This document shows positions 3,924 to 8,433 of a stretch of DNA of 13,968 nt, piece by piece. The stretch's first letter is position 1; each line of letters starts with the position of its first letter. The stretch lies in the IMG/VR virus record IMGVR_UViG_2698536458_000002. The stretch is one strand, 5' to 3'. Made by a program: the position numbers and the translations under genes. Source of the stretch: a virus (Duplodnaviria; Heunggongvirae; Uroviricota; Caudoviricetes). The notes below the pieces were generated by a model. That model saw nothing but the letters and a program-made list of their open reading frames with translations. It was not told the origin of the DNA and did no database searches.

Positions 3924-4319
3924 TCACATTTCATAGATAATGACATAAGTCAGATCGGCTGAACTCCACAGGCCCGCATCATCGTCGCGCCGGTAGTCAT
4001 AGCCGCTGGCCACCATACTGGTGATCAAATCTGACAGTGCCGGGATATCGCTCATCACCGGATAAATCCGGGACTCCATCCACGAATCCAGCTCTGAATC
4101 CGGCACCTGAGCAGGCAGGAAAACTTCGATATGCAGCTCCGCCTGCCAGGTATCGCTGTCCAGCTCTTCGCCCGTGTATTCAGCGCCGGTGAGATAAACG
4201 GCAATTGCCGGAAAATCTTCCTCATCAAAAACAGCGGGGCGACCATCAAAAAGCGTCGCCCCGGTGTCATGCTTCTCCAGTGCATCCAGTACGGCTGCAC
4301 GGAGTTCAGTATGTTTCAT
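3924..4319 (-). CDS. U: Tail terminator protein U (131 aa)
   Basis: ORF track 3924..4319, [48 protein letters not shown]...; matches lambda gpU. 4-nt overlap with the Z stop. Confidence 0.95.
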
Positions 4320-4905: not shown

Positions 4906-5259
4906 TCAGCGGCGACGGTTAACGGCAGGCGGTACGCCCCGTCCAAGCCAGAGATGACAACTTCCGCCATCATCCGGCGAAACCCGATCTACCCAGAAAT
5001 TTTCCTCACCGATGGTCAGCGTGTCTCCACGCCGCAGCTGCCGCACCTCATCAGTCCGGACAAACAGGGACGGGCTGGAGCCTTCAACGCGCACGCCCTG
5101 TCCGGCATAGCTGATATTTTCAGGGTCATCAAAAACACCACGTATCACCGCACCTGACTGCTCACCGGATGTCATGGTGGCTGACGTTCCCATGTACCCG
5201 CGTATCGTTTCATCGGCGCGGGCAATGGCAGCATCGAACAGGTTATCGAAATCAGCCAC
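4906..5259 (-). CDS. FII: Head-tail joining / head completion protein FII (117 aa)
   Basis: ORF track 4906..5259, MADFDNLFDAAIARADETIRGYMGTSATMTSGEQ...; matches lambda gpFII. Confidence 0.95.
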   Translation of the reverse strand: MADFDNLFDAAIARADETIRGYMGTSATMTSGEQSGAVIRGVFDDPENISYAGQGVRVEGSSPSLFVRTDEVRQLRRGDTLTIGEENFWVDRVSPDDGGSCHLWLGRGVPPAVNRRR

Positions 5260-5270
5260 AGCGCCTCCCG

Positions 5271-5669
5271 TTATTGCATTCTGGCCAGGCCGCGCTCTGT
5301 CATTTCGGCTGCCACACCGGCAGAGACACGAAACGCCGTTCCCGGCAGCACAAATGCCACAGGTTTATCCCGCGTGGCGTGAAGTGCATCAGTATGCAGC
5401 GTCACCAGTGCCACGACCGTGACCAGTTCAGCCGTATCCTGAATCACGGTATCCGGCTGCGCTGATACCACCTCATTTTCATGCCCGGTCAGCACATTTT
5501 CCCGGCTGAGAGGGGTGTCCTGACCGGCAGTTTCATCCGTGTCATCAAGCTCTTCTTCCAGCTCTGCCACACGAAGCGCCAGTTCTTCTTTCGTTCCCGT
5601 CAAACTGACATCGCGGTTCAATTGCTCACCCAGCTCCTGAAGACGGGCAATCAGTTCATCTTTCGTCAT
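5271..5669 (-). CDS. FI: DNA packaging / head assembly protein FI (132 aa)
   Basis: ORF track 5271..5708; start chosen at the internal ATG at 5669 (MTKDELIARLQELGEQLNRDVSLTGTKEELALRV...), preceded by GGAGGAG at about 5 nt spacing. Length matches lambda gpFI. Confidence 0.9.
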   Translation of the reverse strand: MTKDELIARLQELGEQLNRDVSLTGTKEELALRVAELEEELDDTDETAGQDTPLSRENVLTGHENEVVSAQPDTVIQDTAELVTVVALVTLHTDALHATRDKPVAFVLPGTAFRVSAGVAAEMTERGLARMQ

Positions 5670-5680
5670 GAACTCCTCCA

Positions 5681-5708
5681 CAGAGAGAAAATGGCCCCGA
5701 AGGGCCAT
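5681..5708 (-). terminator. Stem-loop (7-bp GC-rich stem, UUCG tetraloop) followed by a U/C-rich tract in the E-FI intergenic region; candidate partial terminator or mRNA-stabilising hairpin
   Basis: Sense strand reads TAA-TC-ATGGCCC-TTCG-GGGCCAT-TTTCTCTCTG-TGGAGGAGTTC-ATG. Perfect 7-bp stem 3 nt after the E stop, followed by the FI Shine-Dalgarno. Confidence 0.45.
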
Positions 5709-5710
5709 GA

Positions 5711-6736
5711 TTACGCCAGTTGAACGGACACGAACTCATCAGGATCAGCCAGCAGCATCAGCGGTGCTGACTGAATCATGGTGAACTCACGCGCCGGATC
5801 GCCGGTGGTCACCCAGTTTTTCGGGTAACGGGCAGAAGCGTTAATGCCTTCGCGCTGTGCGTCCGCATCCTGAATGCAGCCATAGGTGCGCAGACCGCGA
5901 GCCTGAGTGTTCCCCAGCACCATCGTGTTGTCCGGCAGGAAGTTCTTTTTGACGCCGTTTTCCACGTACTGTCCGGAATACACGACGATGGCCACATCGC
6001 CATACATTCCCTTATAGGACACCGCTTTGCCCAGGTCTTTTACCGCTGTCTCCAGCTCGGAATGAGAGCCGCGACGGGTATCCAGCTTCTCCTTGACGGC
6101 TTTGAAGGAACGGAACAGCGCCCAGCCTTTCGGGTCAAACACGATGATATTCACCACACCGCTGGCGTTCAGCGCGTAGGCTTCGATATCGTCGGTCGGG
6201 TCATACGTGGACTTGTCACGCTTGCTCCACTCCGTGACGCCGGACTGTGTGATGTTGTTCGCCGCACTGCGGCCCATATCCACCTCAACCGGATCGAAGG
6301 CTTCACCGGTCATGGTGTATTTGCCCTTGAGCACGGCAGAAACTGCCTGCATCTCTTCGACCTGAGCAATGGCCAGCTCTTCGTCACGCATGTTCTGCAT
6401 GATGATGCGACGGCGGCGGTAAGCCGGGTCCGCCAGATTCTGCGGATCTTCATCCGGCAGGCGACGCAGGGTCATCTGCGGATTCACCTCATGCTTGGGT
6501 TTGACATATCCCGGCGTAAATTCAGAGGTGGAGCCGCCACGGGAACGGATAACCTCACCGGAAACAATCGGCGAAACGTACAGCGCCATGTTTACCAGTC
6601 CCGGAATTTGTGAGAGATAGACTTTCTCCGTAGTGAAGGGATAGCTCTCACGGAAAAAGAGACGCAGAAACAGCGGATCAAACTTAAATTTCTGCTCATT
6701 TGCCGCCAGCAGCTGGGCGGTTGTGTACATCGACAT
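5711..6736 (-). CDS. E: Major capsid protein E (341 aa)
   Basis: ORF track 5711..6763; start chosen at the ATG at 6736 (MSMYTTAQLLAANEQKFKFDPLFLRLFFRESYPFTTEKVYLSQIPG...), matching lambda gpE length and sequence. Confidence 0.95.
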   Translation of the reverse strand: MSMYTTAQLLAANEQKFKFDPLFLRLFFRESYPFTTEKVYLSQIPGLVNMALYVSPIVSGEVIRSRGGSTSEFTPGYVKPKHEVNPQMTLRRLPDEDPQNLADPAYRRRRIIMQNMRDEELAIAQVEEMQAVSAVLKGKYTMTGEAFDPVEVDMGRSAANNITQSGVTEWSKRDKSTYDPTDDIEAYALNASGVVNIIVFDPKGWALFRSFKAVKEKLDTRRGSHSELETAVKDLGKAVSYKGMYGDVAIVVYSGQYVENGVKKNFLPDNTMVLGNTQARGLRTYGCIQDADAQREGINASARYPKNWVTTGDPAREFTMIQSAPLMLLADPDEFVSVQLA

Positions 6737-6749
6737 AAAAAAATCCCGT

Positions 6750-6774
6750 AAAAAAAGCCACACAGGCGGCCTTT
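6750..6774 (-). terminator. Short hairpin plus T7 tract in the D-E intergenic region; weak intrinsic-terminator-like element
   Basis: Sense strand reads CTAAAG-GCCGC-CTGT-GTGGC-TTTTTTT-ACGGGATTTTTTT-ATG. 5-bp stem including one G-U pair, 4-nt loop, then a run of 7 T, with a second T7 run directly before the E start. Confidence 0.3.
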
Positions 6775-6791
6775 AGTGATGAAGGGTAAAG

Positions 6792-7124
6792 TTAAACGAT
6801 GCTGATTGCCGTTCCGGCAAACACGGTCCGTTTTTTCGTCTCGTCGCTGGCAGCCTCCGGCCAGAGCACATCCTCATAACGGAACGTGCCGGACTTGTAG
6901 AACGTCAGTGTGGTGCTGGTCTGGTCAGCAGCAACCGCAAGAATGCCAACGGCAGCACCGTCGGTGGTGCCATCCCACGCAACCAGCTTACGGGTGGAGG
7001 TGTCCAGCATCAGCGGGGTCATTGCAGGCGCTTTCGCACTCAATCCGCCGGGCGCGGTTGCGGTATGAGCCGGGTCACTATTGCCCAGCGGCTGGTAATG
7101 GGTAAAGGTTTCTTTGCTCGTCAT
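6792..7124 (-). CDS. D: Head decoration protein D (110 aa)
   Basis: ORF track 6792..7130; start at the second ATG, 7124 ([41 protein letters not shown]...), which has an AAGGGA Shine-Dalgarno at about 7 nt. Matches lambda gpD. Confidence 0.95.
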
Positions 7125-7133
7125 AAACATCCC

Positions 7134-7739
7134 TTACACTGGTGTGTTCAGCAAATCGTTAACGGCATCAGATGCCGGGTTACCTGCAGCCAGCGGTGCC
7201 GGTGCCCCCTGCATCAGACGATCCAGCGCAGTGTCACTGCGCGTCTGTGCACTCTGTGGTGCTGCGGCCAGAATACGGCGGGCCGTTTCCACGGTCATAC
7301 CGGGGGTTTCGGCCAGCACGCGTGCCTGTTCTTCGCGTCCGTGAGCCTCCTCACAGTTGAGGATCCCCATAATGCGACTGTTTTCTGCCGCAACCGCTGC
7401 GGTGATCTGCGCGTTCACGTCCGGCTGCGCCGCGCTGGCGTTCTCGCCCTCCGTCGCTTGCACCACGCCAGTAACGTCAGCCTGCGAAGCAGTGGCTGAA
7501 ACAGTTGTTGATTGAGTCTCTTTGGTCATTCGCCCTCCTGAGAGACGGGATTTACGTGCATCCAGTGCATCACGCATGACGGTGATCGCATCGGTACTGT
7601 TAACAAGTTCATCAGCCAGTCCGGTATCAATGGCCTCCTGACCGCTGTACACTGCAGCCTCGGTATCCAGCACAGCCTGCACGGACAGGCCGGTATATGC
7701 CGACACCTTCTGTGCAAACATCCGGCGGGTTGCATCCAT
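7134..7739 (-). CDS. Nu3: Scaffolding protein Nu3, in-frame internal start within C (201 aa, sharing the C-terminal frame of C)
   Basis: ATG at 7739..7737 is in frame with C at residue 239 (MDATRRMFAQKVSAYTGLSVQ...). The 606-nt length equals lambda Nu3. The internal start is inferred by homology, not independently visible. Confidence 0.75.
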   Translation of the reverse strand: MDATRRMFAQKVSAYTGLSVQAVLDTEAAVYSGQEAIDTGLADELVNSTDAITVMRDALDARKSRLSGGRMTKETQSTTVSATASQADVTGVVQATEGENASAAQPDVNAQITAAVAAENSRIMGILNCEEAHGREEQARVLAETPGMTVETARRILAAAPQSAQTRSDTALDRLMQGAPAPLAAGNPASDAVNDLLNTPV

Positions 7740-8433
7740 CCGGGACTGCAATGTTTCCCGGACATCATCCGGTAGATGGCTGTAGGGGTTGCCATCCACC
7801 TTATGGCTGCCGCTGTAAATCAGCGTGATTTCCACGCCCTGTTTCTCCAGTGCAGCGCCGTAATTACTGTGAGCCATCATGACGCCGATGGAGCCTGTCC
7901 GGGCGGTCTGCGTGACCAGACGCCGGGAGGCGGCACTGGCAAGCAGCTGACCTGCGCTGCAGTTCATGTCATTGGCCAGCGCCCATACCGGCTTTATGTC
8001 ACGCACACGGGCGATGATGTCAGCGCAGTCAAATGCTCCCGCCACCATTCCGCCCGGTGTGTCCATATCGAGCAGAATGCCGTCCACCATCGGGTCGCTG
8101 GCAGCCTGTTGCAGACGGGCGATAATGCCGTTGTAACCGGTCATCCCCGAGTACGGCTGCAGCGCCCGCGTCCGGCTGACCAGCGTGCCGGACACCGGCA
8201 GCACGGCGATGCCGTTCATTACCTGATAACTGCGGGCCTGTCGTGGTCCGTCATCATCACCGGATAACGCCAGCGCCGCGGGTGCCTCTCCGGCAGTCAG
8301 GCTGTCGCCGGATACTGCATCCGTCAGGCAGCTGATCCCAAGCTGGCCTGCAAGCGCACAAAAGAAAACCCGCGCATAGGCGGGTTCAAGCATCAGCGGC
8401 TCATTAAAAGCCATGCTGGCAATATGCGGGAGA

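Follow-up and report, generated by a model that had tools for sequence, protein, structure and literature searches.

A conserved hairpin downstream of the major capsid gene E in a lambda-type late operon

The junction between E and FI

The window, that is the whole stretch of 13,968 nucleotides analyzed here, carries on its minus strand a late operon (head and tail genes) of the lambda type that is 97% identical to lambda. Its genes are Nu1, A, W, B, C/Nu3, D, E, FI, FII, Z, U, V, G and the start of T/H. Positions 5200–6800 (−) are 97.2% identical to lambda 6071–7671 and 99.6% identical to phage Chlobot. The major capsid gene E (5711..6736, −; 341 amino acids), which lies in a region 97% identical to E-FI of lambda, ends with a TAA stop codon at 5713..5711 (−). 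It is followed by FI (5271..5669, −), whose homologous coding sequences are found in lambda, HK629 and 434. FI starts at an ATG (5667..5669, −) and is preceded by the Shine-Dalgarno sequence GGAGGAG (5673..5679, −), the homologous place of which is annotated as a ribosome-binding site in phage 434.

Between the two genes, the sense strand forms a hairpin (5691..5708, −). Its 5' arm AUGGCCC (5708..5702) pairs with the 3' arm GGGCCAU (5697..5691) in a perfect 7-bp stem with five G-C pairs, enclosing the 4-nt loop UUCG (5701..5698). Only two nucleotides (UC) separate the E stop from the stem. Directly after the stem stands TTTCTCTCT (5690..5682, −), within a U/C-rich tract, UUUCUCUCUGU (5680..5690, −), that fills the space up to the FI Shine-Dalgarno sequence. 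Read in the sense direction, the junction is therefore ordered GCG, UAA, UC, AUGGCCC, UUCG, GGGCCAU, UUUCUCUCUGU, GGAGGAG, UUC, AUG. The loop is closed by a C-G pair and has the C(UUCG)G form (CCC-UUCG-GGG, read directly). Both the sequence and its folding confirm this anatomy as it was first described in the original prediction, that is a perfect ATGGCCC/GGGCCAT stem of 7 bp and a UUCG loop followed by a U/C-rich tract and the FI ribosome-binding site.

In isolation, the hairpin has a folding energy of −11.4 kcal/mol, and it is retained in both the minimum free energy (MFE) and the centroid structures of its 51-nt and 151-nt contexts. The same prediction had called the hairpin strong, a description that holds in part. 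It is the most stable among the window's perfect stems of at least 7 bp and, per nucleotide, ranks fifth among the 148 non-overlapping local hairpins at or below −9 kcal/mol that we found in the sense strand (55% GC). By total energy, however, it ranks only 68th of these 148, and its z-scores against dinucleotide shuffles are −1.9 and −1.8. Moreover, hairpins of 7 bp or more with a 4-nt loop and no fewer than five G-C pairs arise somewhere in 38% of the shuffled windows. With z-scores near −1.9 and many coding-region hairpins of greater stability, we dropped energy statistics as proof of the hairpin's significance. Rather, it is its location and its conservation that set the hairpin above chance. 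A search of Rfam returned no family above its gathering threshold, the best overlapping match being PhotoRC-I at 14.2 bits (threshold 45; E = 1.5).

Two other hairpins of the minus strand were recorded in the same scans. The first (8367–8386, −) has a perfect 7-bp stem, AACCCGC-CUAUGC-GCGGGUU, with an energy of −10.7 kcal/mol, and is followed by UUCUUUUG; it lies about 50 nt past the B stop, within the 5' part of C, and is the top match of the terminator-like scan despite its coding location. The second (4235–4263, −), within gene U, is a very stable local hairpin, CGGGGCGAC..GUCGCCCCG, at −18.8 kcal/mol, followed by CUGUUUUU.

The spacing of the late genes sets the junction apart. In the 12 junctions that we measured, from Nu1 through G, genes overlap or lie no more than 15 nt apart, except at D-E (55 nt) and E-FI (41 nt). 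Each of these two long spacers is filled by a hairpin, such that the two hairpins bracket gene E. The companion hairpin in the spacer between D (6792..7124, −) and E, AAAGGCCGC-CUGU-GUGGCUUU followed by a U run, is positioned at 6753..6774 (−). The T=7 lambda capsid contains about 400 copies each of D and E, and both long spacers sit 3' of the gene for one of these two proteins. The major tail gene V, whose product is present at about 200 copies per virion, is followed by a 15-nt spacer with no such hairpin.

The hairpin in relatives of E

We collected the sequence past the stop codon of E homologues from 135 loci (designated by L numbers), which yielded 55 unique junctions. Among the approximately 110 lambda-type loci, the stem is kept in all but that of phage PhiR70_1 (L160), which carries an IS4 insertion. 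The sole change within the stem in these loci is an A to G substitution at the first position, resulting in a G-U pair. Meanwhile, the spacer that follows the stem varies (UUGUUUCUC, UUUUCUCUC, UUGUCUCUC, UUGUUUUUC), and so does the Shine-Dalgarno sequence. The N15, phi80 and HK225 types have the stem GUGGCCC/GGGCCAC, and the Kluyvera, Enterobacter, Trabulsiella and related types have CGGCCC/GGGCCG, UGGCCC/GGGCCG or GCGGCCC/GGGCCGU. Across relatives, the distance from the stop codon to the hairpin ranges from 0 to about 25 nt. Of 24 enteric haplotypes, 14 have the loop UUCG and 17 a UNCG loop, and the N15 and phi80 types have other loops. Because the loops of relatives include AUUC, UGUC, UGUU, UUUC, UCCG and UGCG, the emphasis that the original prediction placed on the UUCG tetraloop was overstated.

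Alignment of the 24 enteric haplotypes shows where the stem changes. The outer pair is A-U in nine, G-U in nine and G-C in four; the second pair is U-A in 15, C-G in four and U-G in one. The five inner pairs are essentially invariant, and the few exceptions all come from L038, which MAFFT set one column off. Pairing is seen in 94.6% of cells, compared with 35–57% when the partner is slid by one to three columns, and the observed covariation score exceeded that of all 500 shuffles, a signal that comes from only two pairs in haplotypes that are related by descent, so that the events are not independent. G-U or U-G wobbles on the sense strand occur in 10 haplotypes, and A-C or C-A combinations in none. 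This asymmetry points to a structure in the sense-strand RNA rather than to a DNA palindrome or an antisense RNA. In our reading of the sequences, these sense-only wobbles, together with the unrelated hairpins found at the same place in more distant phages, carry more weight than the covariation score.

Such unrelated GC-rich hairpins occupy the same position after capsid genes that are 35–75% identical. PhiR5_1 and 1W have CGGGGGC-GAAAU-GCCCCCG after the capsid gene, L044 has a hairpin of 21 kcal/mol, and L074/L178 have GGCCCGGC-UCU-GCCGGGCC. A Pseudomonas-type group shares GGCGCGC-N4-GCGCGCC, with the compensatory variant GGCGCAC/GUGCGCC in L166 and L171, and still other stems are found at the post-capsid position in L172, L176, L179 and L181. 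In L069 and the L187–L191 group (31–38% identity), we found no comparable hairpin adjoining the capsid stop. The Pseudomonas-type hairpins have no U tract; instead, the Shine-Dalgarno sequence of the next gene follows directly (..GCGCGCCUGCAGGAG). Because these types keep the hairpin without the tract, it is a hairpin behind the capsid gene, and not a U tract or terminator, that seems to be under selection. Taken together, the comparison supports the view that the E-FI hairpin acts in the sense-strand RNA, its position and pairing being conserved across the E family and its loop and U tract not.

In the Pseudomonas-type loci L164–L185, the outer pairs CUG/CAG overlap the AG of AGGAG, which may point to an influence of the hairpin on how the next gene is translated in this lineage.

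Compared with the E-FI hairpin, the D-E hairpin shows broader and more even conservation. Across lineages, it has the form AAAGCCGC-N4-GCGGCUUUUUUU with freely varying loops, and it was found in every E-family lineage with a readable D-E junction down to 35–45% capsid identity, save that L183 has no clear D-E hairpin. In the L187 and L188 types (about 32% identity) no comparable D-E hairpin adjoins the start. A U-rich tract follows the D-E hairpin in nearly all lineages; in the L181/L182 types, A-rich sequence takes its place.

The one disrupted lambda-type allele was characterized separately. In PhiR70_1 (PV340577.1; L160 860–1000, L163 90–200), the E-FI hairpin is itself the precise insertion site of an IS4 element (transposase InsG), with a 12-bp target duplication, GGCCCTTCGGGG, that corresponds to the hairpin's palindromic core. 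We had considered a mosaic junction at this site, an idea that is ruled out by the junction being an IS4 insertion. The left end of IS4 brings in a strong, co-oriented terminator-like 9-bp stem, CCGGAAACG-CTCACT-CGTTTCCGG, followed by a run of seven T, about 75 nt past the E stop. The record presents PhiR70_1 as a complete phage genome and gives E. coli C as its host, the same IS4 junction is present in five of 5426 complete E. coli genomes, and we found no paper on PhiR70_1 in the searchable literature. If PhiR70_1 is viable, as its record leads us to infer, this allele suggests that late transcription passes signals much stronger than the E-FI hairpin.

Candidate roles of the E-FI hairpin

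The most likely selected role of the hairpin, to which we assign a probability of roughly 40% on the comparative evidence, would be that of a barrier to 3'-to-5' exonucleases that stabilizes the E mRNA. The barrier would consist of the compact GC-rich hairpin in the sense strand of the Q-dependent late transcript, directly 3' of E. An endonuclease would first cleave the long late mRNA at a downstream site, such as the U-rich tract bordering the stem, after which PNPase and RNase II would digest the RNA as far as the hairpin and halt. As a consequence, the part of the message that encodes E would outlive the segment comprising FI and beyond, and the sister hairpin between D and E would protect the D segment likewise. 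The original prediction named a 3' stability element and a partial terminator, both standard suggestions, on the presumption that FI is made at a low level; of the two, the stability element agrees with all that we observed.

We favor an exonuclease barrier because the stem displays compensatory changes and sense-only wobbles, and because the approximately 110 lambda-type loci hold no stem-breaking variant save the IS4 allele. The unrelated hairpins at the same place after distant capsid genes, including the Pseudomonas hairpins that lack a U tract, argue in the same direction, as does the finding that the sole two long spacers of the head region lie 3' of D and E and are each filled by a hairpin. 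The arrangement matches that of known stabilizing hairpins in that a stable stem-loop of the sense RNA lies just 3' of the more abundantly needed cistron. Classical intercistronic examples are the malE-malF REP element and puf, from which the E-FI hairpin differs in that it is a single 18-nt unit rather than a dispersed repeat. Stoichiometry set by selective RNA processing and by stabilization through intercistronic stem-loops is documented in other operons for multi-subunit assemblies, among them the cip-cel operon, where, as at E-FI, stem-loops lie 3' of the more abundant cistron in a polycistronic mRNA that encodes a single assembly (PMC4423207).

Some features of the operon count against a barrier. 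The 15-nt spacer behind V lacks a hairpin even though the virion needs that protein in many copies, and the stability of the E-FI hairpin is only moderate at −11.4 kcal/mol. In addition, because the stem begins two nucleotides past the stop, ribosomes terminating on E must melt it. Relative expression of the late genes is reportedly attributed to translation initiation, to go by the title of Sampson et al. 1988, and if mRNA levels are flat across E-FI, the contribution of a stabilizer is small. The computational evidence does not separate the barrier role from a translational one, and a search of the literature on lambda late-operon hairpins, Term-seq and mRNA decay found no functional measurement of the E-FI hairpin.

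Alternatively, the hairpin could be an intrinsic (rho-independent) terminator that removes a fraction of late transcripts past E, as the original prediction proposed in the form of a partial terminator, or that stops only Q-less polymerase efficiently and thereby shields the downstream genes from spurious non-antiterminated transcription. We consider this unlikely. The hairpin itself has the properties of an intrinsic terminator (GC-rich, within approximately 5–12 bp, short loop) and is followed by a U-rich tail, and a simple consensus scan lists it as terminator-like. In the window, however, the tail after the stem is UUUCUCUCU, an interrupted U tract where an intrinsic terminator would have about 6–8 consecutive U, and the discriminant d of the d'Aubenton-Carafa type is borderline at +2.8 and turns negative in lambda (−8.4) and in the N15, phi80 and HK225 types (−9 to −13), all scores being approximate since the formula was combined with modern energy parameters. 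Clearly positive values are restricted to a few relatives (L071, L028, L046, L035 and L030), the first four of which have a good U tract and d = 16–31. Because the hairpin has the form expected of a terminator but the U tract is not conserved with it in homologues, the Pseudomonas types having none at all, we do not file the element as a terminator.

The state of the polymerase weighs in the same direction. The late genes are transcribed by Q-loaded polymerase, which runs through pause and termination sites for tens of thousands of nucleotides because Q, as a nozzle on the RNA exit channel, keeps terminator hairpins from forming (PMC9388147). Given a Q-loaded polymerase and a marginal, non-conserved U tract, termination at the E-FI hairpin is probably unimportant in lytic growth and at most minor under Q antitermination, which leaves the proposed partial terminator a weak candidate. 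The 'Q-dependent terminator' speculated on in the same work, which consists of a hairpin, a spacer and 7–9 U (PMC9388147), does not fit either, as no such U tract is present past the spacer. PhiR70_1, the viability of which is inferred, even carries the 9-bp stem and U7 of IS4 between E and FI.

The companion hairpin poses a further problem for termination as a means of setting stoichiometry. Of the two hairpins, the one that looks more like a terminator precedes E, and partial termination there would cut the most-needed product; it is this D-E hairpin that is annotated as a rho-independent terminator in HK629, 434, N15 and HK225. A working partial terminator at D-E would reduce E relative to D, a result at odds with the stoichiometry given that the capsid needs about 400 copies of each, and this weakens the logic of a terminator-for-stoichiometry for the pair of hairpins.

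Other phages lend termination some precedent. The single terminator for T7 RNA polymerase in T7, T-phi, lies right past capsid gene 10, and read coverage falls past it (PMC6938266). T-phi thus resembles the E-FI hairpin in lying directly 3' of the most abundantly needed structural gene of a long late unit, but it is a demonstrated terminator of T7 RNA polymerase, whereas the E-FI hairpin faces Q-modified host RNA polymerase with marginal terminator features. Likewise, the P22-like phage L has a terminator-like hairpin past its capsid-building genes in an antiterminated late operon with a single promoter, and its describers propose the same two roles, partial and Q-less termination, for this terminator behind the procapsid module while calling the roles unknown (PMC8022706). 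The phage L element belongs to an unrelated capsid family, is unrelated in sequence and is predicted as a full terminator.

Less likely again than termination, in our estimate, is that the hairpin serves as a translational device for FI. In this case, ribosomes that have completed the very heavily translated E would be kept from moving onward to re-initiate at FI, and local pairing organized by the hairpin might also mask the FI initiation region, making FI output independent of E. In line with this idea, a hairpin stands between the stop and the next Shine-Dalgarno sequence in all lineages and abuts the latter in the Pseudomonas types, and the other late genes, overlapping or at most 15 nt apart, have a coupling-type spacing. 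Several types have the FI Shine-Dalgarno sequence or AUG paired in their MFE structures: UUUCUCU with GGAGGAG in the window, GUGGA with UCCAU across the AUG in lambda and, in the N15 type, UCCA just past the stop with UGGA of the Shine-Dalgarno sequence. These pairings differ by lineage, however, and are weak (−4.3 kcal/mol in the window), and we rejected masking of the Shine-Dalgarno sequence as a conserved feature. The energy required to open the FI initiation region, 12.3 kcal/mol compared with 3.9 for E, is among the highest in the operon, but opening energy does not track known abundance, as D scores 10.2. Finally, the sister hairpin separates D and E, which are equally abundant and need no uncoupling.

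We also examined the AUG or GUG at the base of the hairpin as the start of an N-terminally extended FI. It is in frame with FI in the lambda, N15, L026 and L037 types, but L025, L034 and L161 have it out of frame and several others lack it, so that the feature is not conserved. In the window, the hairpin-base AUG, two nucleotides past the E stop, is in frame with FI and opens the longest ORF (5271–5708, −; 145 amino acids). In phi80 (L005 1400–1852), the GenBank FI coding sequence starts at the equivalent GTG inside the hairpin, which is probably an annotation artefact because the in-frame relation is not conserved across lineages.

That the hairpin has no selected RNA function, being a chance or hitch-hiking palindrome or a DNA-level hot spot for recombination or insertion, seems very improbable: its energy is unexceptional for a window of 55% GC, and IS4 landed precisely in it, duplicating GGCCCTTCGGGG, in an allele shared by five complete E. 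coli genomes, but the compensatory substitutions, the sense-restricted wobbles, the unrelated hairpins that distant lineages carry independently at this position and, outside the IS4 allele, the intact stem of the approximately 110 lambda-type loci argue against such an origin.

Returning to the exonuclease barrier, a broader version would have the two hairpins that bracket E form a pair conserved across enteric and Pseudomonas E-family phages and carve a discrete, long-lived capsid mRNA from the 26-kb late transcript. This is a long shot. It takes the hairpin before E as always accompanied by a U-rich tract and the one after E as often lacking it, and the two hairpins might also insulate the very heavy ribosome traffic on E from its neighbors. 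If true, post-transcriptional 'cassetting' of the capsid gene would be a general design rule of antiterminated late operons.

Known counterparts and annotation

The E-FI hairpin is already known, in that the same element is annotated as a putative rho-independent terminator in N15 (NC_001901, 7053–7073) and HK225 (JQ086371, 7009–7028). Those elements are homologous to that of the window, sharing its position, the GGCCC/GGGCC core and a 7-bp stem. They differ from it in that the base of the stem is G-C rather than A-U, the loops are AUUC and UGUC rather than UUCG, the stem starts 9–11 nt past the stop rather than 2 nt, and the U tract is poorer. In the records of lambda, HK629 and 434, the E-FI hairpin is unannotated; where a hairpin is annotated (HK629 and 434), it is only that at D-E. 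The window's hairpin also resembles the C(UUCG)G tetraloop hairpins that Tuerk et al. 1988 reportedly found to be extra stable, having a UUCG closed by C-G at an intercistronic site of a phage mRNA, but in the E-FI family the tetraloop is no conserved requirement. The element therefore belongs to a familiar class, that of hairpins after the major capsid gene, and is not a new kind of element.

Terminator-like hairpins are common in antiterminated phage late operons, and specialists call their roles unknown (PMC8022706). Our comparative data shift the expectation from termination to RNA stability or translational insulation, and the 'terminator' labels at the E-FI site are probably misleading, which bears on annotation. 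The result is also relevant to engineered lambda-based constructs in which expression ratios are to be designed. Its practical value is modest. Lambda is the best system in which to settle the role of such hairpins, and the E-FI site offers a clean test case.

As a prophage sequence, the E-FI junction region is very widespread: counted by presence of the junction, the 121 nt that surround the hairpin occur in 3194 of 5426 complete E. coli genomes. Some database records appear to bear labels at odds with their content. MW057783.1, 'Campylobacter phage CJLB-4' (48,361 bp, labeled as a Campylobacter jejuni phage), has the same identity and layout relative to our query as lambda and looks like lambda rather than a Campylobacter phage. 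In addition, lambda E at 98–100% identity is found on short low-coverage contigs of many unrelated assemblies (L008–L023, L040–L078), including those of Chromatium, Kitasatospora, Paenibacillus, Bradyrhizobium, Akkermansia and Prevotella, where it likely represents lambda DNA contamination or spike-in.
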